A stretch of DNA of 64,000 nucleotides from Escherichia coli (GTDB lineage Bacteria; Pseudomonadota; Gammaproteobacteria; Enterobacterales; Enterobacteriaceae): NCBI RefSeq assembly GCF_003991155.1, contig NZ_CP031293.1; one strand, 5' to 3'. Within the stretch, counting starts at the first letter, position 1, and each line of letters opens with the position of its first letter. The notes beneath the pieces were generated by a model, which was not told where the DNA came from, searched no databases, and saw only the letters and a program-made list of their open reading frames with translations. Positions 16,146 through 37,348 of the stretch are shown piece after piece. Made by a program: the position numbers and the translations under genes.

Positions 16146-16781
16146 ATGCTCTTCAGTATGCATATACGAATTGACTATCTGGCGGATAAAAACTGCTTTA
16201 CAGAACTGAATGAATCTCCACGCCTTCGCCGGCAGTGGCAGGATGTTCTGGAGGAGTGCCGGCAGACAGAGGCCGGGCCAGAAGAACGGCTGCGTATTGC
16301 TCTGCTGAATGTGGATTACGTCACCAGTTTTGAACTGCCTTTTCGCTTGTTGCTTACTCGTACACCACAACTGATTGCCGCGCTGCGTGAAGAATGGGAC
16401 ATCAGCCAGAAAAATGTGGTGTTCAACGATAAACGCTTTGGCTGCGTGTACAACCTGAAGGCCAGCCTTTCGGGTGGGCCGGATACATTCCGGTATCATC
16501 TGTCTCACCGTATTCGGCGGGTGGTTGCGAATGAAAACACATCATCGCCATACCAACTGATTGCCCGGGAAGTGAAAGCGCCCCGTCAACGGCTGAAGTA
16601 TGCGCTGGAGACAGGATTGCAGGTGAGCGCACTGGACGGCCTGTTCTGGTTCGGCAGCCAGCGCATTGCGGCAGATATCCTGAGGCTGAGAAAGTACGGG
16701 ATGCGGATTGCGACGGCTTCTGTGGACGTGTATGACAACATAACCGGAACAACTCGTCATATCCCTGTATATTACTCCTGA
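16146..16781 (+). CDS. Hypothetical protein upstream of cdiB, possible C-terminal DNA-binding region
   Basis: The ORF-track start at 16122 is a TTG; the first ATG is at 16146, with weak ribosome-binding-site support. I recognise no family; a possible helix-turn-helix-like stretch is at the C-terminus (GSQRIAADILRLRKYGMRIAT). Confidence 0.4.
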   Translation: MLFSMHIRIDYLADKNCFTELNESPRLRRQWQDVLEECRQTEAGPEERLRIALLNVDYVTSFELPFRLLLTRTPQLIAALREEWDISQKNVVFNDKRFGCVYNLKASLSGGPDTFRYHLSHRIRRVVANENTSSPYQLIAREVKAPRQRLKYALETGLQVSALDGLFWFGSQRIAADILRLRKYGMRIATASVDVYDNITGTTRHIPVYYS

Positions 16782-17002
16782 CGCAAAATAGTCTGTGGGG
16801 GCCGGAGCATGACCGGTAACCGGAACAGGGTTTTGCCCTCGTCACAGCCAAAAATACGTCCTTTATCACATTTCTTCGATTTTTCCTGATATTTTACCGG
16901 GTTACTGTTCAAAAATGCTTCTCTTCTGATGTAAATTTCTTTACTGACACTTTTTGACATGAATTTACACTGGCATCACACAGGCCAGAATACGGGGAGA
17001 AC

Positions 17003-18775
17003 ATGCAGCACCGGCAGAAAAACATTCTGACGAAAACGTCCCTTTTATCCCGTGCGTTGTCTGTCCCCTGTTGTGATATGTTCCGGCGCGGCTCTCCGTG
17101 GATATGCTATCTCTCCCTCTCCGTTTTTTCTGGTTGTTTCATCCCCGCATTTTCGTCTCCGGCAGCCATGCTGTCTCCGGGTGACCGCAGTGCAATTCAG
17201 CAGCAACAGCAGCAGTTGCTGGATGAAAACCAGCGTCAGCGTGATGCGCTGGAGCGCAGTGCGCCGCTGACCATCACGCCGTCTCCGGAAACGTCTGCCG
17301 GTACTGAAGGTCCCTGCTTTACGGTGTCAAGCATTGTTGTCAGTGGGGCCACCCGACTGACGTCTGCAGAAACCGACAGACTGGTGGCACCGTGGGTGAA
17401 TCAGTGTCTGAATATCACGGGGCTGACCGCGGTCACGGATGCCGTGACGGACGGCTATATACGCCGGGGATATATCACCAGCCGGGCCTTTCTGACAGAG
17501 CAGGACCTTTCAGGGGGCGTACTGCACATAACGGTCATGGAAGGCAGGCTGCAGCAAATCCGGGCGGAAGGCGCTGACCTTCCTGCCCGCACCCTGAAGA
17601 TGGTTTTCCCGGGAATGGAGGGGAAGGTTCTGAACCTGCGGGATATTGAGCAGGGGATGGAGCAGATTAATCGTCTGCGTACGGAGCCGGTACAGATTGA
17701 AATATCGCCCGGTGACCGTGAGGGATGGTCGGTGGTGACACTGACGGCATTGCCGGAATGGCCTGTCACAGGGAGCGTGGGCATCGACAACAGCGGGCAG
17801 AAGAATACCGGTACGGGGCAGTTAAATGGTGTCCTTTCCTTTAATAATCCTCTGGGGCTGGCTGACAACTGGTTTGTCAGCGGGGGACGGAGCAGTGACT
17901 TTTCGGTGTCACATGATGCGAGGAATTTTGCCGCCGGTGTCAGTCTGCCGTATGGCTATACCCTGGTGGATTACACGTATTCATGGAGTGACTACCTCAG
18001 CACCATTGATAACCGGGGCTGGCGGTGGCGTTCCACGGGAGACCTGCAGACTCACCGGCTGGGACTGTCGCATGTCCTGTTCCGTAACGGGGACATGAAG
18101 ACAGCACTGACCGGAGGTCTGCAGCACCGCATTATTCACAATTATCTGGATGATGTTCTGCTTCAGGGCAGCAGCCGTAAACTCACTTCATTTTCTGTCG
18201 GGCTGAATCACACACACAAGTTTCTGGGTGGTGTCGGAACACTGAATCCGGTATTCACACGGGGGATGCCCTGGTTCGGCGCAGAAAGCGACCACGGGAA
18301 AAGGGGAGACCTGCCCGTAAATCAGTTCCGGAAATGGTCGGTGAGTGCCAGTTTTCAGCGCCCCGTCACGGACAGGGTGTGGTGGCTGACCAGCGCTTAT
18401 GCCCAGTGGTCACCGGACCGTCTTCATGGTGTGGAACAACTGAGCCTCGGGGGTGAGAGTTCAGTGCGTGGCTTTAAGGAGCAGTATATCTCCGGTAATA
18501 ACGGCGGTTATCTGCGGAATGAGCTGTCCTGGTCTCTGTTCTCCCTGCCATATGTGGGGACAGTCCGTGCAGTGACTGCACTGGACGGCGGCTGGCTGCA
18601 CTCTGACAGAGATGACCCGTACTCGTCCGGCACGCTGTGGGGTGCTGCTGCCGGGCTCAGCACCACCAGTGGTCATGTTTCCGGTTCGTTCACTGCCGGA
18701 CTGCCTCTGGTTTACCCGGACTGGCTTGCCCCTGACCATCTCACGGTTTACTGGCGCGTTGCCGTCGCGTTTTAA
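17003..18775 (+). CDS. cdiB: Two-partner secretion outer-membrane transporter (TpsB; ShlB/FhaC/HecB family)
   Basis: 590 aa with POTRA-containing TpsB character, GGGGAG ribosome-binding site, immediately upstream of a 3288-aa TpsA-type exoprotein with a VENN motif. Confidence 0.9.
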   Translation: MQHRQKNILTKTSLLSRALSVPCCDMFRRGSPWICYLSLSVFSGCFIPAFSSPAAMLSPGDRSAIQQQQQQLLDENQRQRDALERSAPLTITPSPETSAGTEGPCFTVSSIVVSGATRLTSAETDRLVAPWVNQCLNITGLTAVTDAVTDGYIRRGYITSRAFLTEQDLSGGVLHITVMEGRLQQIRAEGADLPARTLKMVFPGMEGKVLNLRDIEQGMEQINRLRTEPVQIEISPGDREGWSVVTLTALPEWPVTGSVGIDNSGQKNTGTGQLNGVLSFNNPLGLADNWFVSGGRSSDFSVSHDARNFAAGVSLPYGYTLVDYTYSWSDYLSTIDNRGWRWRSTGDLQTHRLGLSHVLFRNGDMKTALTGGLQHRIIHNYLDDVLLQGSSRKLTSFSVGLNHTHKFLGGVGTLNPVFTRGMPWFGAESDHGKRGDLPVNQFRKWSVSASFQRPVTDRVWWLTSAYAQWSPDRLHGVEQLSLGGESSVRGFKEQYISGNNGGYLRNELSWSLFSLPYVGTVRAVTALDGGWLHSDRDDPYSSGTLWGAAAGLSTTSGHVSGSFTAGLPLVYPDWLAPDHLTVYWRVAVAF

Positions 18776-18787
18776 GGGATTATTACC

Positions 18788-21700
18788 ATGCATCAGCCTC
18801 CCGTTCGCTTCACTTACCGCCTGCTGAGTTACCTTATCAGTACGATTATCGCCGGGCAGCCGTTGTTACCGGCTGTGGGGGCCGTCATCACCCCACAAAA
18901 CGGGGCTGGAATGGATAAAGCGGCAAATGGTGTGCCGGTCGTGAACATTGCCACGCCGAACGGGGCCGGGATTTCGCATAACCGGTTTACGGATTACAAC
19001 GTCGGGAAGGAAGGGCTGATTCTCAATAATGCCACCGGTAAGCTTAATCCGACGCAGCTTGGTGGACTGATACAGAATAACCCGAACCTGAAAGCGGGCG
19101 GGGAAGCGAAGGGTATCATCAACGAAGTGACCGGCGGTAAGCGCTCACTGCTGCAGGGCTATACGGAAGTGGCCGGCAAAGCGGCGAATGTGATGGTTGC
19201 CAACCCGTATGGTATCACCTGTGACGGCTGTGGTTTTATCAACACGCCGCACGCGACGCTCACCACAGGCAAACCTGTGATGAATGCCGACGGCAGCCTG
19301 CAGGCGCTGGAGGTGACTGAAGGCAGTATCACCATCAATGGCGCGGGCCTGGACGGCACCCGGAGCGATGCCGTATCCATTATTGCCCGTGCAACGGAAG
19401 TGAATGCCGCGCTTCATGCGAAGGATTTAACTGTCACTGCAGGCGCTAACCGGATAACTGCAGATGGTCGCGTCAGTGCCCTGAAGGGCGAAGGTGATGT
19501 GCCGAAAGTTGCCGTTGATACCGGCGCGCTCGGTGGAATGTACGCCAGGCGTATTCATCTGACCTCCACTGAAAGTGGTGTCGGGGTTAATCTGGGTAAC
19601 CTTTATGCCCGCGAGGGCGATATCACCCTGGATGCCAGCGGCAGACTGACTGTCAACAACAGTCTCGCCACGGGGGCCGTCACTGCAAAAGGTCAGGGCG
19701 TCACCTTAACCGGCGACCATAAAGCGGGAGGTAACCTGAGCGTCAGCAGCCGGAGCGATATCGTTCTCAGCAATGGAACGCTTAACAGCGACAAGGACCT
19801 CAGCCTGACCGCCGGCGGCAGAATCACTCAACAGAATGAAAAACTGACTGCCGGCCGGGATGTAACGCTTGCCGCGAAAAACATCACACAGGATACCGCC
19901 AGCCAGATTAACGCGGCCCGCGATATCGTGACTGTCGCCAGTGACACGCTGACAACACAGGGACAGATAACCGCCGGGCAGAATCTCACGGCCAGCGCCA
20001 CCACGCTGACACAGGACGGAATATTGCTGGCGAAAGGTCATGCGGGACTCGATGCCGGCACGCTGAATAACAGTGGTGCTGTTCAGGGGGCTTCCCTGAC
20101 GCTCGGCAGTACAACGCTCAGCAACAGTGGCTCCCTGCTCAGTGGCGGTCCCCTGACCGTGAATACCCGCGACTTTACCCAGAGCGGCCGCACTGGCGCG
20201 AAGGGCAAAGTGGATATCACGGCCAGTGGGAAACTGACCAGTACAGGTTCGCTGGTGAGCGATGATGTACTGGTGCTGAAGGCGCAGGATGTGACACAGA
20301 ACGGTGTGCTGTCCGGCGGCAAAGGGCTGACGGTCAGTGCGCAGGCGCTGAGCTCCGGTAAAAAATCGGTCACCCACAGCGATGCTGCGATGACGCTGAA
20401 TGTGACAACAGTGGCGCTGGACGGGGAAAACAGTGCCGGTGACACCCTCCGGGTTCAGGCAGACAAACTGAGTACCGCAGCGGGCGCACAGCTTCAGAGC
20501 GGTAAAAATCTCAGCATCAACGCCAGAGATGCACGTCTTGCAGGTACGCAGGCAGCACAACAGACCATGGCGGTGAACGCCAGTGAAAAGCTCACCCACA
20601 GCGGGAAAAGCAGCGCCCCGTCGCTCAGCCTCAGTGCGCCGGAACTGACCAGCAGCGGTGTGCTTGTTGGTTCCGCCCTGAATACACAGTCACAGACCCT
20701 GACCAACAGTGGTCTGTTGCAGGGGGAGGCCTCACTCACCGTTAACACACAGAGGCTTGATAATCAGCAGAACGGCACGCTGTACAGTGCTGCAGACCTG
20801 ACGCTGGATATACCGGACATCCGCAACAGCGGGCTTATCACCGGTGATAATGGTTTAACGTTAAACACTGCCTCCCTCAGCAATCCGGGAAAAATCATCG
20901 CTGACACGCTGAACGTCAGGGCGACCACGCTGGATGGTGATGGTCTGTTGCAGGGCGCCGGTGCACTGGCGCTTGCAGGCGACACCCTCTCACAGGGCCG
21001 TAACGGACGCTGGCTGACGGCGGGCGACCTCTCCCTCCGGGGTAAAACACTGCATACCGCAGGGACCACGCAGGGACAGAATCTCACCGTGCAGGCGGAC
21101 AGATGGGCGAACAGTGGTTCCGTGCTGGCAACCGGTAACCTTACTGCTTCGGCAACCGGTCAGTTGACCAGTACCGGCGATATCATGAGCCAGGGTGACA
21201 CCACGCTGAAAGCAGCCACCATGGACAACCGGGGCAGTCTGCTTTCGGCCGGCACGCTCTCCCTTGATGGAAACTCACTGGATAACAGCGGCACTGTCCA
21301 GGGTAACCATGTCACGATTCGCCAGAACAGTGTCACCAACAGTGGCACGCTCACCGGGATAGCCGCGCTGACGCTTGCCGCCCGTATGGCATCCCCTCAA
21401 CCTGCGCTGATGAATAACGGAGGTTCATTGCTGACCAGCGGCGATCTGACAATCACCGCAGGCAGTATTACCAGTTCCGGACACTGGCAGGGCAAACGGG
21501 TGCTGATCACCGCAGACAGTCTGGCAAACAGCGGGGCGATCCAGGCGGCTGACAGCCTGACTGCACGTCTGACGGGTGAGCTCGTCAGCACAGCGGGCAG
21601 CAAAGTCACCTCGAACGGTGAAATGGCGCTCAGTGCACTGAATTTAAGCAACAGCGGACAATGGATTGCAAAAAATCTGACCCTGAAGGCGAACTCACTG

Positions 21701-24700
21701 ACCAGTGCGGGTGACATCACCGGTGTGGATACTCTCACGCTCACGGTGAATCAGACGCTGAACAATCAGGCGAACGGAAAACTGCTCAGTGCAGGTGTGC
21801 TGACGCTGAAGGCAGACAGTGTCACAAACGACGGGCAATTACAGGGAAATGCCACCACCATCACGGCAGGACAACTCACAAACGGCGGGCATCTGCAGGG
21901 CGAAACGCTGACGCTGGCCGCCTCCGGTGGCGTGAACAACCGTTCCGGTGGTGTTCTGATGAGCCGGAATGCACTGAATGTCAGTACTGCGACCCTGAGT
22001 AACCAGGGCACGATACAGGGTGGTGGCGGGGTTTCCCTGAACGCCACAGACCGTCTGCAGAACGACGGCAAAATCCTTTCCGGCAGTAACCTCACGCTGA
22101 CGGCGCAGTTGCTGGCGAACACCGGCAGCGGACTGGTACAGGCTGCCACCCTGCTGCTGGATGTGGTGAATACTGTCAACGGCGGACGCGTACTTGCCAC
22201 CGGCAGTGCCGACGTTAAAGGAACCACGCTGAATAATACCGGTACGCTTCAGGGGGCGGACCTGCTGGTGAATTACCACACATTCAGCAACAGCGGTACC
22301 CTGCTGGGAACCTCCGGGCTTGGCGTCAAGGGCAGTTCACTGCTGCAAAATGGTACAGGGCGGCTGTACAGTGCAGGCAACCTGCTGCTTGACGCTCAGG
22401 ACTTCAGTGGTCAGGGGCAGGTGGTGGCCACCGGTGATGTCACACTGAAACTGATTGCTGCCCTCACGAATCATGGTACCCTGGCCGCAGGGAAAACCCT
22501 TTCCGTCACGTCGCAAAATGCCATCACCAACGGCGGTGTGATGCAGGGTGATGCCATGGTGCTCGGTGCCGGAGAGGCATTCACCAACAATGGAATGCTG
22601 ACTGCCGGTAAAGGCAACAGTGTTTTCAGCGCACAGCGTCTTTTCCTTAACGCACCGGGTTCACTTCAGGCCGGTGGCGATGTGAGTCTGAACAGCCGGA
22701 GTGATATCACCATCAGTGGTTTTACCGGCACGGCAGGCCGTCTGACAATGAATGTGGCCGGTACCCTGCTGAACAGTGCGCTGATTTATGCGGGGAATAA
22801 CCTGAAGCTGTTTACAGACCGTCTGCATAACCAGCATGGTGATATCCTGGCCGGCAACAGTCTGTGGGTACAGAAGGATGCTTCCGGCGGTGCAAACACA
22901 GAGATTATCAATACCTCCGGGAATATTGAGACGCATCAGGGCGATATTGTTGTAAGGACCGGGCATCTTCTGAACCAGCGGGAGGGATTTTCTGCCACAA
23001 CAACAACCCGGACTAACCCCTCATCCATTCAGGGAATGGGAAATGCTCTGGTTGATATTCCCCTTTCCCTTCTTCCTGACGGCAGCTATGGCTATTTCAC
23101 CCGTGAAGTTGAAAATCAGCACGGTACGCCCTGCAACGGGCACGGGGCATGCAATATCACAATGGATACGCTTTATTATTACGCTCCGTTTGCTGACAGT
23201 GCCACACAGCGCTTTCTCAGCAGCCAGAACATCACAACAGTAACCGGTGCTGATAATCCGGCAGGCCGCATTGCGTCAGGGCGTAATCTTTCTGCTGAGG
23301 CTGAACGACTGGAAAACCGGGCGTCATTTATCCTGGCGAATGGGGATATCGCACTTTCGGGCAGAGAGTTAAGCAATCAGAGCTGGCAGACGGGGACAGA
23401 GAATGAATATCTGGTATACCGCTACGACCCGAAAACGTTTTACGGTAGCTATGCCACAGGCTCTCTGGATAAACTGCCCCTGCTGTCACCGGAATTTGAA
23501 AACAATACCATCAGATTTTCACTGGATGGCCGGGAAAAAGATTACACGCCCGGTAAGACGTATTATTCCGTTATTCAGGCGGGCGGGGATGTTAAGACCC
23601 GTTTTACCAGCAGTATCAATAACGGAACAACCACTGCACATGCAGGTAGTGTCAGTCCGGTGGTCTCTGCACCGGTACTGAATACGTTAAGTCAGCAGAC
23701 CGGCGGAGACAGTCTGACACAGACAGCGCTGCAGCAGTATGAGCCGGTGGTGGTTGGCTCTCCGCAATGGCACGATGAACTGGCAGGTGCCCTGAAAAAT
23801 ATTGCCGGAGGTTCGCCACTGACCGGTCAGACCGGTATCAGTGATGACTGGCCACTGCCTTCCGGCAACAATGGATACCTGGTTCCGTCCACGGACCCGG
23901 ACAGTCCGTATCTGATTACGGTGAACCCGAAACTGGATGGTCTCGGACAGGTGGACAGCCATTTGTTTGCCGGACTGTATGAGCTTCTTGGAGCGAAACC
24001 GGGTCAGGCGCCACGTGAAACGGCTCCGTCGTATACCGATGAAAAACAGTTTCTGGGCTCATCGTATTTTCTTGACCGCCTCGGGCTGAAACCGGAAAAA
24101 GATTATCGTTTCCTGGGGGATGCGGTCTTTGATACCCGGTATGTCAGTAACGCGGTGCTGAGCCGGACGGGTTCACGTTATCTCAACGGACTGGGTTCAG
24201 ACACGGAACAGATGCGGTATCTGATGGATAACGCGGCCAGACAACAGAAAGGACTGGGATTAGAGTTTGGTGTGGCGCTGACAGCTGAACAGATTGCTCA
24301 GCTTGACGGCAGCATACTGTGGTGGGAGTCAGCCACCATCAACGGACAGACAGTCATGGTCCCGAAACTGTATCTGTCGCCGGAAGATATCACCCTGCAT
24401 AACGGCAGCGTTATCAGCGGGAACAACGTGCAACTTGCGGGCGGCAATATCACCAACAGCGGCGGCAGCATCAACGCACAGAACGACCTCTCGCTCGACA
24501 GTTCCGGCTATATCGACAACCTGAATGCGGGGCTGATAAGCGCGGGCGGTAGCCTGGACCTGAGCGCCATCGGGGATATCAGCAATATCAGCTCAGTCAT
24601 CAGCGGTAAAACCGTACAACTGGAAAGCGTGAGTGGCAACATCAGCAATATCACCCGGCGTCAGCAATGGAATGCGGGCAGTGACAGCCAATATGGTGGT

Positions 24701-27700
24701 GTGCATCTCAGCGGTACGGACACCGGTCCGGTTGCGACCATTAAAGGCACTGATTCACTTTCGCTGGATGCAGGGAAAAACATTGATATTACCGGGGCAA
24801 CGGTCTCGTCCGGTGGAGACCTTGGAATGTCTGCGGGTAATGATATCAACATTGCCGCAAACCTGATAAGTGGGAGCAAAAGTCAGTCCGGTTTCTGGCA
24901 CACTGATGACAACAGTTCATCATCCACCACCTCACAGGGCAGCAGCATCAGCGCCGGCGGTAACCTGGCGATGGCTGCAGGCCATAATCTGGATGTCACG
25001 GCATCCTCTGTTTCTGCCGGGCACAGCGCCCTGCTTTCTGCAGGTAACGACCTGAGTCTGAATGCAGTCAGGGAAAGCAAAAACAGTCGCAACGGCAGGT
25101 CAGAAAGTCATGAAAGCCACGCAGCTGTGTCCACGGTGACAGCGGGCGATAACTTCCTCCTTGTTGCCGGTCGTGATATTGCCAGTCAGGCTGCCGGTAT
25201 GGCTGCGGAAAATAACGTGGTCATCCGGGGCGGACGTGATGTGAACCTGGTGGCAGAGTCTGCCGGCGCAGGCGACAGCTATACGTCGAAGAAAAAGAAA
25301 GAGATTAACGAGACAGTCCGTCAGCAGGGAACGGAAATCGCCAGCGGTGGTGACACCACCGTCAACGCAGGACGGGATATCACCGCTGTTGCGTCATCCG
25401 TTACCGCAACCGGCAATATCAGCGTGAATGCCGGTCGTGATGTTGCCCTGACCACGGCGACAGAAAGTGACTATCACTATCTGGAAACGAAGAAAAAAAG
25501 CGGAGGTTTTCTCAGTAAGAAAACCACCCGCACCATCAGTGAGGACAGTGCCACCCGTGAAGCAGGCTCCCTGCTGTCGGGGAACCGCGTGACCGTTAAC
25601 GCCGGTGATAACCTGACGGTAGAGGGTTCGGATGTGGTGGCTGACCGGGATGTGTCACTGGCGGCGGGTAACCATGTTGATGTTCTTGCTGCCACCAGTA
25701 CAGATACGTCCTGGCGCTTTAAGGAAACGAAGAAATCCGGTCTGATGGGTACCGGCGGTATTGGTTTCACCATTGGCAGCAGTAAGACAACGCACGACCG
25801 GCGCGAGGCCGGGACAACGCAGAGTCAGAGTGCCAGCACCATCGGCTCCACTGCCGGTAATGTCAGTATTACCGCGGGCAAACAGGCTCATATCAGCGGT
25901 TCGGATGTGATTGCGAACCGGGATATCAGCATTACCGGTGACAGTGTGGTGGTTGACCCGGGGCATGACCGTCGTACTGTGGACGAAAAATTTGAGCAGA
26001 AGAAAAGCGGGCTGACGGTTGCCCTTTCCGGCACGGTGGGCAGTGCCATCAATAATGCGGTTACCAGTGCACAGGAGACGAAGGAGAGCAGTGACAGCCG
26101 TCTGAAAGCCCTGCAGGCCACAAAGACAGCGCTGTCTGGTGTGCAGGCCGGACAGGCTGCGACAATGGCCTCCGCAACCGGTGACCCGAATGCGATGGGA
26201 GTCAGCCTGTCGCTCACCACCCAGAAATCGAAATCACAACAACATTCTGAAAGTAACACAGTATCCGGCAGTACGCTGAATGCCGGGAATAATCTGTCTG
26301 TTGTCGCAACCGGTAAAAACAGGGGCGATAACCGCGGAGATATTGTGATTGCCGGAAGCCAGCTTAAGGCCGGTGGTAACACAAGCCTGGATGCCGCGAA
26401 TGATATTCTGTTGAGTGGCGCCGCAAACACACAAAAAACAACGGGCAGGAACAGCAGCAGTGGCGGTGGCGTGGGTGTCAGTATCGGTGCCGGTGGTAAC
26501 GGTGCCGGTATCAGCGTCTTTGCCGGCGTTAATGCGGCAAAAGGCAGCGAGAAAGGTAACGGTACTGAGTGGACTGAAACCACAACAGACAGCGGTAAAA
26601 CCGTCACCATCAACAGTGGTCGGGATACGGTACTGAACGGTGCTCAGGTCAACGGCAACAGGATTATCGCCGATGTGGGCCACGACCTGCTGATAAGCAG
26701 CCAGCAGGACACCAGTAAGTACGACAGTAAACAGACCAGCGTGGCTGCCGGCGGCAGTTTTACCTTTGGCTCCATGACCGGCTCAGGTTACATCGCTGCC
26801 TCCCGGGATAAGATGAAGAGCCGCTTTGACTCCGTTGCTGAACAAACCGGAATGTTTGCCGGTGATGGTGGCTTCGACATTACAGTGGGCAGACATACCC
26901 AACTGGATGGTGCGGTGATTGCCTCCACTGCCACACCGGATAAAAACCACCTGGATACCGGAACGCTGGGGTTCAGTGACCTTCACAACGAAGCGGATTA
27001 TAAAGTCAGTCACAGTGGAATCAGTCTGAGCGGTGGTGGCAGCTTCGGGGATAAATTTCAGGGTAACATGCCGGGTGGCATGATATCCGCCGGAGGTCAC
27101 AGCGGACATGCGGAAGGAACGACTCAGGCCGCAGTGGCAGAAGGCACTATCACCATCCGGGACAGGGACAATCAGAAGCAGAATCTGGCGAACCTGAGCC
27201 GTGACCCTGCGCACGCTAATGACAGTATCAGCCCGATATTTGACAAGGAGAAAGAGCAGAGGCGTCTGCAGACAGTGGGGCTTATCAGTGACATAGGCAG
27301 TCAGGTGGCGGATATTGCGCGTACACAGGGAGAACTGAATGCGTTGAAGGCCGCGAAGGAAGCAACCGGCGAAACACTTCCTGCTAATGCAACAGAGAAA
27401 CAACGTCAGGAATATCTTGCGAAACTGCGTGACACGCAGGCTTACAGGAATGAAATGGCGAAGTATGGTACCGGCAGTGAAATTCAGCGGGGTATCCAGG
27501 CCGCGACAGCCGCGCTTCAGGGACTGGCGGGTGGTAATTTAGCGGGTGCTCTGGCCGGAGCTTCTGCACCGGAACTGGCGCATCTGCTGAAATCAACAGA
27601 AAAAGACCCGGCAGTAAACGCCATTGCTCACGCCATTCTGGGCGGTACAGTAGCGGCAATGCAGGGTAATAATGTTGCTGCTGGTGCAGCAGGCGCAGCA

Positions 27701-28654
27701 ACGGGAGAGCTGGCAGCCAGAGCGATTGCCGGAATGCTGTATCCGGGAGTGAAGCAGTCAGACCTCAGTGAAGAGCAGAAGCAGACGATAAGTACGCTGG
27801 CAACTGTGTCAGCAGGGCTGGCCGGCGGTCTAACCGGAAACAGCACCGCATCAGCAGCAGTGGGAGCACAGAGCGGGAAGAATGCTGTTGAGAATAACTA
27901 CCTGAGCGTGTCTGAAAAGACAGAACTTGAGATAGCAAAACAGACGCTTAAAAACAGTAAAGATCCGGCAGAGCGTGAAAAGGCACAGCAGAAATATGAT
28001 GCATTGCTTGAAAAAGATATTGCCAGTGATAAGGAGGTTATTGCTGCCTGTAGTAATGGTAATGCGAGTAGTTCAGCGTGTGCCAGCGCAAGACTGAAAG
28101 TTATTGCGTCGAAAGAAGGGTACGAAGATGGCCCTTATAACTCGAAATACAGCCAGCAATACGCTGATGCGTATGGTCAGATAGTCAATCTCCTCGATAT
28201 CACCAGTGTTGATGCACAGAATCAGCAGCAGGTGAAAAACGCCATGATTAACTATTTCATGGTCACCAAAGGGGTGGATCGTCAGACCGCAGAAAGCTAC
28301 ACCGAAACAACGCAGGGCTTGGAGATCATTGCGGCTTCGGTAACGCCTCTTATAGGGCAAGCTGCATCAAATAAATTAAGCTACCTTGGTATTGGGAAAA
28401 AGATATCCTTTGATGGTGATTTTTATACTGTAGATGGAATGAAATTCAGCAAAAGTTATTATGAGAAATTATGGGAGCAAGGCAGACCTGCGCCATTCGT
28501 GCAAGCAAGAGAAGTGTTGAATAGCAATCCAAAAATTGAGCCGGATCCTAGAGGCGCACCTGGCTACTTAAGATATGAAGGTGCAGGTCTTGAAATGATC
28601 TATAACCCGAAAACGGGACAAGTTGGTCATATTCAACCAGTCAAGGTTAAATAA
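18788..28654 (+). CDS. cdiA: Contact-dependent growth inhibition exoprotein CdiA (3288 aa)
   Basis: N-terminal two-partner-secretion transport domain ([27 protein letters not shown]), long filamentous-haemagglutinin-type repeat tract, glycine-rich pre-toxin region and the VENN motif ([15 protein letters not shown]) about 255 aa from the C-terminus. Confidence 0.9.
27887..28654 (+). other. CdiA-CT toxin region (VENN to stop); enzymatic class unassigned
   Basis: VENN codons at 27887..27898, in frame with cdiA. The final domain (...[33 protein letters not shown]...GHIQPVKVK) matches no toxin I can name and does not end in GYGI. Confidence 0.7.
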
Positions 28655-28667
28655 AAAGAGGAAGTAA

Positions 28668-28988
28668 ATGGATATTTGGCCTGAATTTCAACGAGATCTT
28701 GAGATGTATCGAGATGTTGTTTTATCAATAAAACGTAACCTTCGGTTGTATGAGGAGTGTATTGAATCGTTAGTTCATCAGATCGGAAGCACCAATTTTG
28801 ATAATGCGCAGCCTCTATTTGATGACCTCTTTCGTATGCAATCTGAACTTGCTACTATGTTATACAAATATGAATATAAGCCAGGAAAAAGGATACAAGA
28901 TTTAATATATCATCTGGACAGGGATGATTTTTACTCAAGAAAATATTGGCATAAAAAATTCAGTGATGGATTGGCATGGCCTGAATAA
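28668..28988 (+). CDS. cdiI: Putative CdiI immunity protein cognate to the CdiA-CT
   Basis: 106-aa ORF starting 13 bp after the cdiA stop with an AGAGGAAG ribosome-binding site; visibly more AT-rich than cdiA, as expected for an exchangeable toxin/immunity cassette. The assignment is positional. Confidence 0.7.
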   Translation: MDIWPEFQRDLEMYRDVVLSIKRNLRLYEECIESLVHQIGSTNFDNAQPLFDDLFRMQSELATMLYKYEYKPGKRIQDLIYHLDRDDFYSRKYWHKKFSDGLAWPE

Positions 28989-29081: not shown

Positions 29082-29642
29082 TTGTGCAACCAATTCAATG
29101 AGATCGCTTCTATGCCTGCTCGACAAGTATGTCAGAATTTTTTCCACGATGCGTTAGCACCGTTTCACAAATACCGACAAAATGCTTTGCTGGATGCCAC
29201 CATCGCTCTCATCAATGGCGCATCACTGACGTTGACCAGCATCGGGCGTTATTTACCCGGCTTGGCTCGGGTCAAAAATAAAATCAAACGCGTTGACCGA
29301 CTGCTCGGTAATGAATCTCTTCACCGCGATATCCCACTGATTTTCAATAATATTATTGCCATGCTGACTAGCCAGCTATCTCTTTGTGTCATCGCCGTTG
29401 ACTGGAGTGGATATTCATCTCAGGAGCATCATGTGCTCCGCGCCAGCCTGCTCTGCGATGGATGCTCGCTTCCCCTGTTAAGCTGGGTAGTCCCGTCAGA
29501 AAAACAGCAGAACTCGCAGATACAAAAAAACTTCCCAGATGCCCTTGCCGAGGCTGTAAACCCTGTGGCCAGAGTCATAATAGTTACCGATGCGGGTGTT
29601 CTTACCCCCTTATTTCCAGACAGGGGCTGTATCTTAAGTTAA
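29082..29642 (+). pseudogene. IS4-family (IS10-like) transposase, N-terminal fragment only
   Basis: RVKNKIKRVDRLLGNESLH ... VIAVDWSG ... VLRASLLCDG ... IIVTDAGV parallels the IS10 transposase N-terminus (KHNIKRIDRLLGN ... IVLVDWSD ... LRASVALHGR ... IVSDAGF). The frame ends after 186 aa where an IS3-family fragment begins. Confidence 0.6.
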
Positions 29643-29760
29643 CATTACCCGCTGACGTCGATATTCTCGCGGAGAGCGATAACCCAACGCACTATGCGGA
29701 TGGTTTTCATTGTAATGCTCGATCGCCACTGCAAGGTTTATATTGCCTGTTCATCGATCA
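29637..29760 (-). mobile_element. IS3-family transposase (OrfB) C-terminal fragment
   Basis: The minus strand encodes ...[35 protein letters not shown], the conserved C-terminal signature of IS3-family integrase-core transposases. Upstream frames are broken by stops. Confidence 0.55.
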
Positions 29761-30219
29761 TCAATCTCGTGAACTGTGAGACGAAACAGCGTACACTGTT
29801 TGAACGTATCTACTTTTCCCAATACTGGGCGAAGGGAGATGTTATTGCGAAGCGCGCTCCAATTAGTCAGTGGGAACCTTATTCGGAAGAGTCACTGCTT
29901 GTCATCATCGTCACCAGCGTCTGTCGTATTAAAGTCGCGATGCTAAAACCTGAACCTCCCAGAGATCCCCATATCCCGCTAATGGGGGATTTTAACTAAA
30001 ACTTAGCGCTATCGCTGCATATTGTAACTATCCCGCATCACGTATGCATAAATTATGACGCCATACGGGGAACAAATACACAGAGGAAGAAAAAGATTAG
30101 ATTGGTTTTAAGGGATTTTTTATCATAAATGGCGCTGCTAAAATTATGAGATTATCGAAGATAAAATTCTTGATCATACATAAAAGGCCTCCTGAATTAA
30201 ATCAAGAGGCGTATAGTTT

Positions 30220-31338
30220 TTATATTACTGATGTATGTTTAATGATCTCACTGATTTTCACTTTCCTGTCCTGCGATCTTGAAAGAGTGGCAGCATCAGC
30301 AGTAGCAATCGCCGACATGGCCGCCTCACCATTGAGAAGGTCAATATAATCTTCTTCAGGTTTTGCACCACTGAGGATATTATGGAGGAATAACGTCTCC
30401 TTTCTTATTAAACTGGCAAGCCATAATGGTGTTTTTTTTCCAGGATGACCATATGCTATAGCGCCATCCATTTCTGAGGTCATATTGCCTTTCCGACGAT
30501 CATCATCTTCTTCTTGTGTTTCATGGACCAAAAAATGCTTTGTCTGACCGCCAATCCTAAGTGACCCTGCTGTTTCTTGCATATCAATTTTAATAGAGCC
30601 TTTAGTTCCATTGATGATGACATAATGTTCTGGCCAGTTAAATGCACTCCCCCACTCTAAGGTTGCTAGTTTTCCTGACGGGAATTCCAAGGTCATAAAT
30701 AACATATCATCTTCATTGCCAAACCCTAGACCAGAATGAGCTAAATTTCCACCAATCATAGTAACCGTCTCTGGTATTTCTCCAAGTAAATGCTGAACAC
30801 AATCTAACTCATGTATATGATGATATAGATGTCCACCAGATTGTTCTTTCATCTTTTTCCAGGAAAGTCTCTCCTGTTTGTTTTCCCAGCCATTTCTCTT
30901 GGTATGACATGATAATATTTCGCCGATAACACCTTCTTTAATTAACTTCCGTGCATATTGAACTCCATTGAAAAAATTCATAATATGCCCAGCCATAAAG
31001 GTCACACCAGCTTCTTTACACGCTTTGACCATATCCACACAATCTTCATAACTTAATGCAATTGGTTTTTCACAAAAAACATGCTTCTTATTCTTTGCTG
31101 CTTTAATTACTGGATCTTTATGCAGATAATTTGGGGTGGCTACGATCACACAATCGACTAATTTACTTGAAACTAAAGCATCCAAGCTTGACATATTGAT
31201 ACATTGCAATTCACGGGCAATAGTTTCTCCATTTTCAGGATCGTATACACATGTAATTTTTGCATTATCATGCATATTCATAAAACGAGCTAATTCAGCG
31301 CCAAAGTATCCAACACCAACAACGCCATAATTAATCAT
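30220..31338 (-). CDS. yjhC: Gfo/Idh/MocA-family NAD(P)-dependent oxidoreductase, YjhC (NanY)-like
   Basis: 372 aa with N-terminal Rossmann motif (GVVGVGYFG); GGAGG ribosome-binding site; immediately downstream of a 405-aa NanT-like MFS gene. Both lengths match my recollection of YjhB/YjhC. Confidence 0.7.
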   Translation of the reverse strand: MINYGVVGVGYFGAELARFMNMHDNAKITCVYDPENGETIARELQCINMSSLDALVSSKLVDCVIVATPNYLHKDPVIKAAKNKKHVFCEKPIALSYEDCVDMVKACKEAGVTFMAGHIMNFFNGVQYARKLIKEGVIGEILSCHTKRNGWENKQERLSWKKMKEQSGGHLYHHIHELDCVQHLLGEIPETVTMIGGNLAHSGLGFGNEDDMLFMTLEFPSGKLATLEWGSAFNWPEHYVIINGTKGSIKIDMQETAGSLRIGGQTKHFLVHETQEEDDDRRKGNMTSEMDGAIAYGHPGKKTPLWLASLIRKETLFLHNILSGAKPEEDYIDLLNGEAAMSAIATADAATLSRSQDRKVKISEIIKHTSVI

Positions 31339-31349
31339 AAAGCCTCCAA

Positions 31350-32567
31350 TTATTTAGCCACGGATAGTTTATAAATTTTACCTGGAATATCAAAACCAAC
31401 TAACAAAATTAATAAGGCAGAGAATGCAACCGTAACAATGAATAATGAAACACCTAAGCCATAATATCTAGAAATGTATGTAGCTAATACAGGTGCGGCC
31501 ATTCCTCCAGTTGCCCCTAAGTTATAAATAAGACCGGTCCCTAATCCTCTTAATTTTGTTGGAAAGTAATCATATATAAATTTTGGAACCAACCCTGCAA
31601 TACCTAAATTTGTAAACATTAATCCAAAGAGACATAATCCTATAAGAAAAGAGTTTTTCACAGAAATAAAAAAAAGAGGACAAAGGAAAATAAATGAAGT
31701 TATTAGACCAACTACAAATGTTTTTTTTACACCAATCTTATCACCAACAAAACCAAAAAATATTGTACCTGTCAGTGTACCTAAACCTGCTATTGTCATC
31801 AGAGTTGAAATAACCACTGTATTAACTCCATTATCTGCTAGGTAGGAAGGAAGTAGTCCGTTTATCGGCCAGTTTGCACCAAATAGACAAAAACAGACGA
31901 GGAAAACGATCATAGAGATTGAAAGATGTGGTTTTCTGAAGACAGACAAAAATGTTGATTTATCCTTATATTTATCTTCAATCCACTCCTGACTTTCTGG
32001 AGCACTTTTTCTGATCCAAAGAACTAGTAAAACTGGTAACAGGCCTATAAAAAAAGAGTTTCTCCATCCATATACTTCAGCAAACTGAGGGATTATTTGT
32101 GCCGCAATAATATTTCCAACAGAAAAACCACTTACCAAAAAAGCACTAGCTTTAGATTGAAGATTTTTAGGCCAACTTTCTACTGCATAAGTTGAAGCAC
32201 ATGCATATTCACCAGACATCCCTAAGCCAACAATAAAACGGCAAACTGCGAGCATATATAAGTTTGTAGCAATACCGCTAAGGCCTGTTCCGACTGAGTA
32301 AATGATAATTGCCCACATCATCATTGGCTTACGCCCATATTTATCAGCCATGGCACCAAAAAAACCGCCCCCAATAGGTCTGGCTATGAAGGCCACTGTC
32401 CCTATTAAAGTGGCCTGAATATCCGTAATGCCAAGATCTGCTTTTATAATATGAAGAATGTAAAATATCATCATAAAATCAAAGCCATCAAATACATATC
32501 CAAGCCATGCAGAAAAAAGAGCTTTCCGTTGTGGTGGATTAACTTGTTTATACCATACTGTTGCCAT
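31350..32567 (-). CDS. yjhB: MFS transporter of the sialic acid (NanT) family, YjhB (NanX)-like
   Basis: Start placed at ATG 32567 (MATVWYKQ...) with an AGGAAA ribosome-binding site, giving 405 aa. Major-facilitator-superfamily signature; a NanR-type operator lies upstream. Confidence 0.7.
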   Translation of the reverse strand: MATVWYKQVNPPQRKALFSAWLGYVFDGFDFMMIFYILHIIKADLGITDIQATLIGTVAFIARPIGGGFFGAMADKYGRKPMMMWAIIIYSVGTGLSGIATNLYMLAVCRFIVGLGMSGEYACASTYAVESWPKNLQSKASAFLVSGFSVGNIIAAQIIPQFAEVYGWRNSFFIGLLPVLLVLWIRKSAPESQEWIEDKYKDKSTFLSVFRKPHLSISMIVFLVCFCLFGANWPINGLLPSYLADNGVNTVVISTLMTIAGLGTLTGTIFFGFVGDKIGVKKTFVVGLITSFIFLCPLFFISVKNSFLIGLCLFGLMFTNLGIAGLVPKFIYDYFPTKLRGLGTGLIYNLGATGGMAAPVLATYISRYYGLGVSLFIVTVAFSALLILLVGFDIPGKIYKLSVAK

Positions 32568-32976
32568 ATTTGTTTCCTGTGTTATTCTAATACAGCCCTT
32601 AAAGTAAATATTAGGGAGCCTCAACAATATCCAGCAATAATTATATTGTCTTCAAATACGCCAGTACTATTAATTGTTATCAATACCTAATCAGTACAAT
32701 CTTTTTCTCCATTTCTTCTTAACATATTTCACGCTATGAAAGATAAAACTGATACCCACCTTCAGTTTTGGGTCACCATCAAAAAAAATGTTCGCCAGAT
32801 ATTCCACCACTGGCACAGTTCAACCCTGCTTCAAAAATTGACTTATTCATTGTGCTCATTTTCGTAGTCCGTTCAGGTTGAATAAAACTCCCTTAGTCAA
32901 ATGAGGAAAGACTGAGAGGTTATTACTTTAGCTTACGTTATAGCTGTTTTCCTTTGCAGTATTTCTTTGCTTTTCT

Positions 32977-33000
32977 GTATACCTTTATACCTGTTATACC
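32977..33000. promoter_or_regulatory. NanR-type operator: three GGTATA hexamers (minus strand reads GGTATAACAGGTATAAAGGTATAC)
   Basis: Read directly from the sequence, about 410 bp upstream of the yjhB-like start. The tri-repeat GGTATA arrangement is the known NanR binding architecture. Confidence 0.5.
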
Positions 33001-33597
33001 AGATCAAAAAACAAGCAATCCACATAACAAAACGCGTTTTGTTACTGATGTCACAAATTGAGCATATTTTTGTATCTGATAGTTTGTTACAAACACCACA
33101 ACCAAGATGCCTATTTCGTTTCAGCATCAACTGTTAAATTATCTGGTTGCCAACGAGAATACTGAGCTTTTTTGTCCCTAAGACTGACCGTCAACGCAAC
33201 AATCTTTGACTGTTTGACATTGTCATGCCCGCAGGCCAGCGGATCTAAAGACATCAGACTGCTTGCATCAGCCAGTTGCGTATCTGGCTATGTCCCTTAA
33301 TTGGTAAGGGTTCGAGGAACTCAACATTAACGCATTTTTCAGCGCATCACCGACAGTGTATATGAACGATTGCACTCTGACGATGGTTGATTTATTTGGT
33401 TGCATAGGGGCTAGCTAGTCTGGTACCGGAGGCTGGATCTGAAGTACTGACCCTAGGAATAACGCCGGGCTGACTCATATTCTGACCCATTGTCAGCCCG
33501 CGTGTTTACTGCTCTAGCTCATTTCCTGTTGTCAGGCATTCAATTCCCAACTGCAGGTTATGGCCCGGTGAGCGAACACCTGACGGCAGGTATCACT

Positions 33598-33775
33598 CAC
33601 CCGGAGAAGGTAAATCCCTCAAGGGGCAGCAACTCTGCCAGTCGCTCCTCCGGCCACTCCGGCAGACGTGTCAGGACGTCTGTCAGCCAGGCATGTGGCT
33701 CCAGACCGTTGCGTTTCGCGGTTTCCAGCAAGCTCATTATTTGCGCAGCGCGTTCTCCCGCCATACGACAGCCGT
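33598..33775 (-). mobile_element. IS66-family transposase (TnpC) C-terminal fragment
   Basis: The minus strand encodes ...GERAAQIMSLLETAKRNGLEPHAWLTDVLTRLPEWPEERLAELLPLEGFTFSG*, paralleling the C-terminus of the intact IS66 TnpC in this window (...[40 protein letters not shown]...). Confidence 0.5.
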
Positions 33776-33797
33776 CAGAGCAGTGCGTCAGCGGGCG

Positions 33798-35642
33798 GCA
33801 GTTTTACCTGGGGTGCTGGCAGAGGTGGTTATGGCAGCGCCAGCCGCGATAATATCCACAGCAACTATGATTCCGTTAATGAGCAGAGCGGTATTTTCGC
33901 AGGCCGGGGTTATTTTGATATCACTGTGGGGAATCACACTCAGCTCGATGGTGCGGTGATTGCTTCGACAGCACCTGCCGACAGGAACTCGCTGGACACC
34001 GGTACTCTGGGCTGGTCGGATATCCATAACCAGGCAGACTATAAAGCCAGCTATACCGGAATCAGTTTATCGGGTGGCTCAGGGATGTCAGCCAGCCAGA
34101 TGGTGGCCTCAAATGCAATAGCCGGTGCGGCGAACGCACTTACCGGTATGTCCGGCAGCAGTGGACATGCTGAAGGTACCACGTCATCCGCCATCAGCGG
34201 CGGAAATCTCATTATCCGTGATAAGGAGAGTCAGAAGCAGGATATTGCCGGGCTCAGCCGGGACCCGGAAAACGCCAACGGCAGCATTGCACCGATATTT
34301 GACAAGGAGAAAGAACAGAAGCGTCTGCAGGAAGCGCAGGTTATCAGCCAGATTAGCGGTCAGATGAGTAATATCGTAATGACGTATGGCGAAACTGAAG
34401 CGATGAAAGCAGCCTGGAAAGAGCATCCTGGCATGAGCGATGCACAGTTGCGGGAGACTCCGGAATACAGAGAGGTCATGAAAGGCTACGGTACGGGCAG
34501 TTCGCCGCAGATGGTGGTACAGGCCATCACGGGCGTGCTGGGCGGACTGAATGCAGGGAACCCGGGGCAGGTATTGGCGGGCGGTCTGAATCCGGCAGTG
34601 GCACAGCTTATAAAACAGTCCACCGGCGATAACCGGGAAGCAAACCTGATGGCTCACGCAGTCTGGGGTGCACTTGCCGCACAACTGGGCGGAAACAATG
34701 CGGCTTCCGGTGCTGCTGGGGCATTCAGTGGTGAACTTGCAGCCTGGTATATCATTGATAACTACTACGGTGGTCGTACCGATAACCTGAGTGAACAGGA
34801 ACGTCAGCAAATCAGCATGCTGGCCACCATTGCCTCTGGTATTGCGGGGGGACTTGCAGGCAACAGTACGGCGTCTGCCGGTACGGGTGCACAGGCAGGA
34901 ACTCGGCTGAAAACAATATGCTGAACGTGATAGCCACTGAAACAGCAGCTAATACGGCAGCAGCAATAGCTGGTGCTACAGGTAATGCCAGTAAGGATAC
35001 CGGGAATGATAATAGCTGGGATACCGGTGGTGTTACGCTGGCTACGGGAACAGTGTGCTGTACGTGATCCGAGTCGCGATGGCACCCGAGGACCGGGGCA
35101 TGTGCTGAATGGCGACAATACAGACGGAAACAAACAGCCGAATCTGGGCAAAGACGTAGCGAGCGCAACGGATAAGGATAAAGCTGAGCTTGGTGGTGCA
35201 GGTGCTGGAATACCGGGGGGGATGGGGACCGGATAATGAAGAAAAAGCCCGTCATCAGGAGGTTCAGCAACAACGATTTGATGAACTGAGTAAAATATAT
35301 GATAAAAGTCACCCGGCCGGAGAGTTAACGGTGGATGGGCAGACTATCAGGCAGAGTTCGGTAAGTAACCGTTATGGTACGACGAAAGTGTTTGAAAGCC
35401 AGACTTTGACGGATAAACAGATCCACAATTACGCACAGCAACTGGCAGGCGATACACCGCTGAAAGAGGTAAAATCGGGAATCTACACGTCTAAACTATC
35501 AGATGGTTCGGTAATAACACTTAGAAACATATCTACATCAGAAGGTCAGACAGGCGCTCGTTGGACTATAGATATTCGTAATAACCAAAAGCTTACTGAA
35601 CTGGGGAATAAATATTCACGTGTGGAGATTAAGTTCAAATGA
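33798..35642 (+). pseudogene. Orphan cdiA-CT module 1: displaced 3' fragment of a cdiA gene with frameshifts
   Basis: DNA and protein homology to the pre-toxin region of the main cdiA begins at about 33798 ([51 protein letters not shown]). The VENN-equivalent (AENN, 34906..34917) lies in a different frame from the upstream ORF, and the toxin part is split over at least three frames. Confidence 0.6.
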
Positions 35643-35995
35643 TTACTGAGTTAAGTGAAAGAGAATACAAGGAGTTGACAGACGCTGCAGAGGGACAGAC
35701 TCTTGATGCTATTTTGTGTTATTCAGTTCCTGATATTCACCCTGCAGAGTTTAGTTTTGCAGATAGAAGAGAAATCTTTTTTTGGGCATTAACCCGTCTT
35801 CTGAAAGAAGGGCGTATCAAACTCGCCAAGCACGGTAAGTTTTTGGAAGGAAGTGTTGACGAGCAGGTTGAGCGTTTTCGACAGGCATTTCCGAAAACAG
35901 AAGAAGAGATGGAAGACGGTATCTGGTTTTTTGATGAGAGTTGTCCGGGGGGGGCTGTTTGGGTGCTTGAAGATGGCTCTCTCGAATGGACCTGA
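35639..35995 (+). CDS. Putative orphan CdiI immunity protein (module 1)
   Basis: Intact 118-aa ORF whose ATG overlaps the stop of the orphan toxin frame (ATGA overlap), the arrangement typical of toxin/immunity pairs. Acidic small protein; no family recognised. Confidence 0.55.
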
Positions 35996-37112
35996 TAACC
36001 CCTTCACAGCGCAGGATGCGGCGCAGCGAGCGTATAACAACGATATGGCGGCCTCAGTTTTTGGTACCGGAGGGAACGATACAGGCTACAACGGCAGCGG
36101 TACAGGGACTGGCCGGCGGTAATCTGAGTGCAGCCCTGGCAGGTGGTGCAGCACCGTATCTGGCCGAAGTGGTGAAAACCATGACCACAGACCCGGTTAC
36201 CGGTGAGGTGAATAAGGCTGCAAATGTGGCTGCTCATGCCGTGGTGAATGCCGCACTGGCTGTGGCACAGGGAAATAACGCTCTTGCCGGTGCTGTAGGT
36301 GCAGCCACCGGCGAGGTGGTGGGAATGATAGCCACACAGATGTACGGTAAGCCGGTGAGTGAACTGAGCGAGACAGAGAAGCAGACGGTCTCGACACTGG
36401 CAACGGTTGCTGCTGGCCTGGCCGGTGGTCTGGTGGGCGACTCGGGGCTTCAGCGGTAGCCGGCGCACAGTCAGGTAAGACGACTGTTGAGAATAATTTA
36501 CTTGGCGGTAGTGAAGATGCTCAGGCTGCGTGGATACGCCAGCATGGTATCGACATGGCAACATGTGCAGAAAACCCTTCTGGTGCCGCCTGCCAGAAAG
36601 CAATGAATGAGAGGGATGCTGTAGGGCTGGCTCTGGCAACAGGTACAGTGGCACTACTCCCCGGTAGTGCTCAGGCTGTGTGGGGACTGGGAGCAAGTGC
36701 GAATGCTGGTATCAGTTATCTGGCTGATGGTACTGTAGATCCGACAAACGCAGCCATTGCAGGCTGGGTGAATGTGTTCAGCATGGGTAATGGCCTGGCG
36801 GGGACTGTGGGCTGGAATGCGGCAGGTGGTGCGCTGGGTAACTGGATTGACAACAAAGATCCTCTGTCTGGTGCAATTTCAAATGGTATCGGTTCTGCTG
36901 CCGGGTATGGTATCGGTAAAGGTATTACTTGGGGGACAGATAATATTACGAATGCTGTAGGAAAATGGGTGACAAATGGCTGGGATCCTAAGTACGATCC
37001 AACATGGATAAAATATGCTGAAGTAAATCGTAACGATATCATTCGAGAAGGCATGAAACCGAGCAATGTTCTTGGAACTGCTGGAGATATTGGCGGTTCT
37101 ATAGGATCCTAG
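35996..37112 (+). pseudogene. Orphan cdiA-CT module 2: cdiA 3' fragment with a frameshift; glycine-rich predicted membrane-active C-terminal domain; no immunity gene follows
   Basis: Homology to the main cdiA pre-toxin region ([28 protein letters not shown] ... [20 protein letters not shown]) runs up to a VENN motif (TTVENNLLGG) reached only after a frameshift near 36455. The C-terminal roughly 185 aa are Gly/Ala-rich with GxxxG-like spacing. Confidence 0.5.
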
Positions 37113-37162: not shown

Positions 37163-37348
37163 TTGGCTTTACGCTTACCGTTTTTTTACGCGCCAGAACA
37201 AGACTATGATAGCGTTGCCCTTATAGACGATCACATTATCGTCCACTCCGACTTTGCGCAACTACTGTAGAGTGGTGTACTCCGCGGCTTCTTTGAGGAT
37301 CTCAACTTCCATGTTTTTTTACCCAGCAAGGGCTGTAACTCTTTTATT
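37163..37348. repeat. About 180-bp segment, copy B of the direct repeat (copy A at 11205..11383)
   Basis: See copy A. Here it overlaps the 3' end of the minus-strand OrfA-like gene 37231..37644. Confidence 0.6.

Follow-up and report, generated by a model that had tools for sequence, protein, structure and literature searches.

The contact-dependent inhibition (CDI) systems of Escherichia coli that bear most directly on the locus examined here are those of strains NC101 and 536. The C-terminal region of the NC101 effector (CdiA-CT), its immunity protein CdiI and EF-Tu are known as a ternary complex (PDB 5I4Q and 5I4R; PMC5737660). The toxin has a BECR fold and binds domain 2 of EF-Tu, and both EF-Tu and EF-Ts are required for its activity in vitro. 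It cleaves on the 5' side of a guanine discriminator, stripping four 3' nucleotides off tRNA-Glu after C72, and tRNAs with a guanine discriminator are preferred; activity requires Arg200 and His248, and the toxin is neutralised by CdiI (PMC5737660). The N-terminal half of CdiA-CT is an entry domain, and the entry domains of NC101, 3006 and STEC_O31 depend on PtsG (PMC5371414, PMC9424206, PMC11630599). In E. coli 536 (EC536), CdiA's receptor-binding region is Ala1345-Trp1668 and belongs to class II, which binds OmpC/OmpF; in pairwise comparison of classes I to III, this region has only 24-27% identity (PMC5371414). A 'covarying' region of CdiA was defined in the same publication (PMC5371414).

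The DNA analysed here is a stretch of 64,000 nucleotides of E. coli (NCBI RefSeq assembly GCF_003991155.1, contig NZ_CP031293.1), hereafter called the window. Positions 17003-28988 of the window almost certainly hold an intact class II cdiBAI CDI locus of the NC101 toxin type, carried by a human E. coli of extraintestinal type on a pathogenicity island associated with tRNA-Phe.

The cdiBAI locus and its toxin module

Three open reading frames (ORFs), all on the + strand and all with ATG starts, make up the locus in the ORF listing, with gaps of 12 bp between cdiB and cdiA and of 13 bp between cdiA and cdiI. Their coordinates and the regions recognized within CdiA are as follows.

17003..18775, + strand: cdiB, Omp85/TpsB outer-membrane transporter, 590 aa
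18788..28654, + strand: cdiA, CDI effector, 3288 aa, a full-length ORF without interruption
18893..19651, + strand: two-partner secretion (TPS) domain, preceded by a signal peptide (CdiA aa 36-288; Pfam TPS, E=1.2e-49; NCBIfam TIGR01901)
19652..22879, + strand: first filamentous haemagglutinin (FHA-1) repeat region (aa 289-1364; Pfam Fil_haemagg and DUF5649, mostly weak; TIGR01731)
22880..23851, + strand: receptor-binding region, class II (aa 1365-1688; predicted receptor OmpC/OmpF)
23852..25777, + strand: 'covarying' region (aa 1689-2330, equivalent to EC536 Pro1669-Gly2310; 97-100% identical to EC536)
24908..26740, + strand: FHA-2 repeat region (aa ~2041-2651; Pfam Fil_haemagg_2, best E=1.1e-44)
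27758..27907, + strand: pre-toxin PT-VENN domain (aa 2991-3040; Pfam E=5e-20)
27899..28375, + strand: entry domain (PDB 6VEK, the CdiA-CT of E. coli 3006, aligns with aa 3034-3207, E=1.5e-71; Pfam DUF6862)
28376..28654, + strand: toxin domain, a BECR-fold tRNase (aa 3197-3288; 92/92 identical to chain A of PDB 5I4Q/5I4R)
28668..28988, + strand: cdiI, cognate immunity protein, 106 aa, guanine-plus-cytosine (GC) fraction 0.349

The toxin domain thus matches the NC101 toxin at every residue of the crystal chain, and the 106-aa ORF directly after cdiA, the position of a cognate immunity gene in a CDI system, is identical to chain B of 5I4Q/5I4R at 106/106 positions. The same RefSeq accession, WP_000355946.1, is common to the CdiI of the window locus and that of NC101. 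Both catalytic residues are present: Arg200 and His248, in a numbering that begins at the Val of VENN, are R3233 and H3281 of the window CdiA. Judged by these identities, the window toxin is an NC101-type EF-Tu/EF-Ts-dependent tRNase accompanied by its own CdiI, with an activity that has been published for the identical protein. The preceding half of CdiA-CT is homologous to the entry domains of 3006, NC101 and STEC_O31 and, by this homology, is a member of the PtsG-dependent family.

The VENN motif itself was located at CdiA aa 3034-3037 (nt 27887-27898), where the pre-toxin domain that bears it marks off the variable C-terminal toxin region. Past the motif, identity to EC536 drops from 97-100% to 12-18%. 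The GC fraction changes along the locus, from 0.57 in cdiB and 0.564 in cdiA before VENN to 0.45 in the entry domain, 0.398 in the toxin tip and 0.349 in cdiI, and the shift past VENN is as expected for a polymorphic toxin module. The uninterrupted 9.9-kb ORF of cdiA is far beyond chance.

The remainder of CdiA has the architecture of a large TpsA effector, with the TPS domain at its N terminus followed by FHA-1 and FHA-2 repeats. In the NCBIfam search of the three proteins, TIGR01901 and TIGR01731 exceeded their curated cut-offs in CdiA, where the matches were to FHA repeats; CdiB gave weak BamA-like POTRA matches, and CdiI had no match. These generic results added nothing to what Pfam and the PDB had shown. 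Pfam placed POTRA_2 at aa 106-181 (E=1e-22), POTRA_3 at aa 184-236 (E=1.5e-18) and ShlB at aa 241-553 (E=2e-90) of CdiB, so that the gene next to the effector gene encodes a TpsB/Omp85 transporter that has POTRA domains and a barrel of the ShlB type. CdiB is 93% identical to its E. coli 536 counterpart and identical to NC101 CdiB at 578/590 positions.

For assignment of the receptor class, the E. coli 536 cdiBAI locus was retrieved, the two CdiA proteins were aligned, and identity was read in windows. Identity was 98-100% over aa 1-200, 87% over aa 201-300, about 40% over aa 301-600 and 89-100% over aa 601-2800, and it fell to 12-18% beyond about aa 2900. Within this alignment, CdiA aa 1365-1688 and CdiA(EC536) Ala1345-Trp1668 were identical at 324/324 positions. 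When the published EC536 primers were placed on the window, the region-boundary pair matched at 38/39 and 36/39 positions and UPEC2310G at 41/41. A Tyr/Pro-rich stretch of CdiA corresponds to the N-terminal part of the covarying region. Since EC536 has the very same receptor-binding region, which is of class II, OmpC/OmpF is the predicted receptor, and by this comparison the window CdiA is a class II effector. The 100% identity to the class II reference rules out a class I or class III receptor region. Class IV, in which a cdiBCAI locus has an acyltransferase gene, cdiC, between cdiB and cdiA and encodes a lipidated, LPS-binding (lipopolysaccharide-binding) effector with a divergent FHA-1 region, was rejected as well: there is no cdiC, the 12 bp between cdiB and cdiA hold no additional ORF, and the receptor-binding region is that of class II.

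The first-pass annotation of this DNA had proposed a cdiB-cdiA-cdiI locus with a CdiA of 3288 aa, and the ORF listing agrees exactly with both its coordinates and that length. The TpsB-type CdiB, the TPS/FHA organization of CdiA and the VENN-delimited C terminus that it described are borne out by the Pfam domains and by VENN at aa 3034; the small AT-rich gene that it noted downstream (GC 0.349) proves to be cdiI by the identity of its product to chain B of 5I4Q; and the claim that the locus is intact holds for the uninterrupted 9.9-kb ORF. It had also suggested aligning the central region with class references, and this is the alignment that yielded the class II assignment and the predicted OmpC/OmpF receptor. 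On every feature that can be judged from sequence, the locus is a CDI system with a class II CdiA, a PtsG-type entry domain and an NC101-type tRNase/immunity pair; none of its modules is missing or interrupted, and each matches, exactly or nearly, a counterpart that has been used in experiments. The annotation is correct, and it illustrates that a CDI locus can be recognized from raw sequence alone.

Proposed mechanism and alternative readings

A mechanism can be proposed from the domains identified and from published work on their relatives. CdiB, a beta-barrel with two POTRA domains, would export CdiA by way of the N-terminal TPS domain; the domains are present in both proteins, and export is what is known of the family. 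The FHA-1 repeats would then form a beta-helical filament, again as known from the family, on which the central receptor-binding region is displayed. This region, identical to that of strain 536, would bind OmpC/OmpF of target cells, as published for that strain. By analogy with published relatives, receptor binding would lead to export of the C-terminal half, passage of CdiA-CT into the target periplasm and cleavage at VENN. The entry domain would cross the inner membrane using the glucose phosphotransferase system (PTS) permease PtsG and the proton gradient, as published for the NC101/3006/STEC_O31 family. Finally, the 92-residue RNase would bind EF-Tu domain 2 and, together with EF-Tu and EF-Ts, remove the last four nucleotides of guanine-discriminator tRNAs, of which tRNA-Glu and tRNA-Asp are examples, and translation would stop; these last steps have been published for the identical protein.

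The practical value of the result lies in the precision of the resulting annotation, in which all elements are predicted: the system would target E. coli with compatible OmpC/OmpF, would need PtsG in the target and would inactivate guanine-discriminator tRNAs. Mutants in ompC, ptsG or tsf/tuf are predicted to be resistant targets.

Nothing observed speaks against this assignment, and a few points qualify the reading of the locus as a working class II system of this kind. The published competition assays with the NC101 toxin used a chimeric cdiA(EC93)-CT(NC101) plasmid and not a class II full-length effector (PMC5737660). In the CDI literature examined, no test was found of a class II receptor region, PtsG entry and an EF-Tu-dependent tRNase combined as one full-length effector. 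The promoter scan upstream of cdiB returned only two 9/12 matches, no more than are obtained from shuffled sequence. Finally, CdiA aa ~280-595 is only about 40% identical to EC536, and for this part the equivalence rests on the occurrence of the same sequence in NC101 and in many other strains.

Most E. coli cdi loci, with the exception of that of EC93, are poorly expressed in laboratory media. This background and part of the evidence above favour an alternative that is possible, although somewhat improbable, namely that the locus is structurally intact yet silent in most conditions and has little competitive role, with only cdiI-conferred immunity or occasional induction of any consequence. 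It would fit the lack of a convincing promoter upstream of cdiB, where both candidates fall within shuffle expectation; it would also fit the position of the NC101 homology, which begins only 79 bp upstream of cdiB, with an upstream context that varies between strains, and the origin of the published activity data examined for the NC101 toxin in plasmid or chimeric constructs (PMC5737660). Set against this, the 9.9-kb cdiA ORF contains neither stops nor frameshifts, in contrast to the decayed orphan modules and insertion sequence (IS) elements next to it, and an intact locus has been kept across many lineages (305 genomes at 80% or more query coverage). The survival of so long an ORF beside decayed neighbours, across many lineages, is an argument for continuing purifying selection, and hence for use. 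The first-pass annotation had called the locus probably functional; this stands for the protein modules, but the native promoter candidates are weak and the killing assays on record are chimeric.

An unlikely alternative is that the system serves chiefly as an adhesin, biofilm or kin-recognition factor, with CdiA-receptor or CdiA-CdiA contacts outweighing killing. The receptor-binding region is indeed identical to that of a CdiA for which receptor-dependent cell-cell adhesion was demonstrated by flow cytometry (PMC5371414), and the locus lies on a pathogenicity island beside pap fimbriae. Adhesion alone, however, would not maintain a toxin tip and an immunity gene that are 100% conserved, with the catalytic residues intact, and the two roles are not mutually exclusive.

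The divergent part of the filament invites a further question. The patch in FHA-1 covers nt 19625-20574 (~950 bp, aa ~280-595) and has about 40% protein identity to E. coli 536, whereas its flanks have 97-100%; it is common to the window CdiA and NC101 CdiA. Judged by its sequence, this part of the filament has the look of a mosaic produced by recombination. That it is instead a second module that can be exchanged and serves its own function (surface-antigen variation, evasion of phage or immune defences, or filament-filament self-recognition), and not the product of neutral repeat drift, seems very doubtful.

The weakest alternative, a host-directed two-partner-secretion haemagglutinin or haemolysin of the FHA, ShlA or HpmA type without an interbacterial toxin, can draw on the PDB matches of the TPS domain to FHA and HpmA TPS structures (E=1e-35 to 1e-28) and on the family name of CdiB ('ShlB/FhaC/HecB hemolysin secretion/activation protein'), but it has next to no chance of being correct, given a PT-VENN domain, a PtsG-type entry domain, a tRNase domain and an adjacent immunity gene identical to a proven antibacterial pair, and the identity of the CdiA C terminus to PDB 5I4Q refutes it.

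Flanking DNA, orphan modules and the island

Features identified outside the three genes of the locus were the following.

16944..16991, + strand: two overlapping weak sigma-70-like promoter candidates, 12-59 bp upstream of cdiB, with 9/12 matches each
33668-34924: orphan 1 cdiA fragment, 50% identical to CdiA aa 2610-3030
35986-36459: orphan 2 pre-toxin part, frameshifted

The number of promoter-like sites upstream of cdiB was not above the shuffle expectation in the promoter scan, and the two sites are listed as candidates only. They sit inside the segment shared with NC101, which begins at 16924. A terminator scan after cdiI found none. The homology to NC101 (99.0% DNA identity) begins abruptly at 16924, 79 bp upstream of cdiB; to the left of this breakpoint NC101 carries a methyltransferase and a hypothetical gene, unlike the genes in the window. 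The cdi module thus has different left-hand contexts, and the breakpoint falls inside the presumptive promoter region. At the beginning of the annotated cdiB ORF (17003-17080), an in-frame Met26 precedes a signal-peptide-like hydrophobic stretch (MFRRGSPWICYLSLSVFSGCFIPAFS), and the real start of cdiB may lie 25 codons downstream of the annotated ATG at 17003. Just upstream of cdiB, at 16158-16781, an ORF encodes a 207-aa protein that falls in the NCBIfam ECs1377 family (E=2e-95). An 85%-identical homologue of this family is also found upstream of cdiB in E. coli 536, and the ECs1377-family gene may travel with class II cdi loci.

Downstream of cdiI, the interval 29112-33773 (~5 kb) contains an IS4 transposase fragment, an integrase-core fragment, a small 'surface-adhesin E family' ORF and a frameshifted ythA, followed in the same stretch by the sialic-acid genes nanY and nanX (minus strand, GC ~0.35) and a further transposase fragment. 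Because this stretch intervenes after cdiI, the two orphan modules are not contiguous with the main locus. Orphan 1 loses its reading frame immediately ahead of an AENN motif, and its toxin part is divided between the ORFs 34973-35236 and 35190-35642; an intact 118-aa immunity-like ORF, DUF596 in RefSeq, lies at 35639-35995. After its pre-toxin part, orphan 2 continues in another frame with VENN and a Gly-rich 185-aa C-terminal (CT) region that extends to 37112. No immunity ORF was visible after this CT region, and an IS remnant comes next (37231-37644, minus strand). The composition of the CT region, which resembles a Gly zipper, suggests a possible membrane-active toxin. Searches of PDB, Pfam and NCBIfam with the orphan CT fragments gave no significant match except to the PT-VENN tail.

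At the protein level the orphans are 50-56% identical to CdiA. Only one repeat of cdiBAI DNA was found elsewhere in the window, a 120-bp match with 77.5% identity, and the orphans appear for that reason to derive from a different cdiA lineage. The first-pass annotation had counted them, together with the main locus, as a toxin/immunity repertoire. Two modules do exist at ~33.7-37.1 kb, but the term overstates what they are, because both have decayed by frameshifts and orphan 2 lacks an immunity gene; they are remnants, with at most one spare immunity gene intact. Its description of the surroundings as IS-riddled agrees with the IS and integrase remnants that RefSeq annotates in an identical genome.

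At the DNA level, at least 10 complete E. coli genomes match the 12-kb region with 100% identity. Human isolates among the identical ones include Rb-3, FDAARGOS_1284, 85.0412, MS 200-1 and TUM13754, and the RefSeq product given in identical genomes is 'cdiA: contact-dependent inhibition effector tRNA nuclease'. Of 5426 complete E. coli genomes, 305 contain at least 80% of the locus and 73 contain the module of toxin tip plus cdiI. According to the Rb-3 annotation, the locus belongs to an island whose end is marked by tRNA-Phe and an integrase and whose contents also include pap (papG-III), pgtABCP, nanXY, a PTS operon and many IS and integrase fragments. Among the pathogenicity islands of extraintestinal E. 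coli, it is one of the pheV type. In the window, ~38080-64000 carries pgtP, pgtCBA, a complete pap operon (papG-III, papX) and a phosphoethanolamine transferase gene. At the right end of the island, a tyrosine integrase adjoins tRNA-Phe and yqgA.

Comparison with described CDI systems

The described systems share different parts with the window locus. The E. coli 536 system resembles it in the receptor-binding region (324/324), in the TPS, most of FHA-1, covarying and FHA-2 regions (89-100%), in CdiB (93%) and in having an ECs1377-family gene upstream of cdiB. It departs from it over the ~950-bp divergent patch of FHA-1 (aa ~280-595, ~40% identity) and from about aa 2900 on, where strain 536 encodes a CysK-dependent anticodon nuclease (tRNase) and an unrelated immunity protein.

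Entry domains of the 3006/STEC_O31/NC101 type have ~70% pairwise identity and a common dependence on PtsG (PMC9424206), and the cargo that follows them varies. That of 3006 differs from the window toxin in being a tRNA-Ile acceptor-stem nuclease (PMC11630599). STEC_O31 differs both in its cargo, an EndoU anticodon nuclease, and in its receptor-binding region, which is of class III (Tsx) (PMC11630599, PMC5371414). The CdiA-CT of EC869 was absent from the matches of the PDB sequence search with the window CdiA. According to PMC5737660 and PMC9071432, this toxin is like that of the window in using EF-Tu and EF-Ts for cleavage of the tRNA acceptor stem, but the EF-Tu/EF-Ts/GTP-dependent tRNase of EC869 is called an unrelated toxin in PMC5737660.

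NC101 has the same cdiB-cdiA-cdiI order, a CdiA-CT identical from VENN to the C terminus and an identical CdiI, and its DNA is 99.0% identical to that of the window from 16924 to at least 39000, with the decayed orphan modules, nanXY and the pgt genes likewise downstream. The DNA of NC101 upstream of window position 16924 is unrelated, and the CdiB proteins differ at 12/590 positions. The NC101 CdiA has 3289 aa, compared with 3288 aa here; 60 positions differ, with a 2-aa and a 1-aa indel counted among them, and none lies at or after aa 2892. The published numbering Val3035-Lys3289 accordingly becomes V3034-K3288 in the window protein. At window positions 27356-27460 (CdiA aa 2857-2891) substitutions between the two proteins are densely clustered and accompanied by a 1-aa indel, whereas the proteins are otherwise ~98% identical; from this pattern, a small patch upstream of the PT-VENN domain may have arisen by recombination. 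With 60 differences in CdiA and a different upstream flank, the window strain is not NC101 itself. The system is nevertheless one that is already known genetically, biochemically and structurally, and its discovery value is correspondingly small: publications exist for its toxin and immunity protein as well as for its route of entry and its class of receptor, and the crystallised NC101 proteins are identical to those encoded here.

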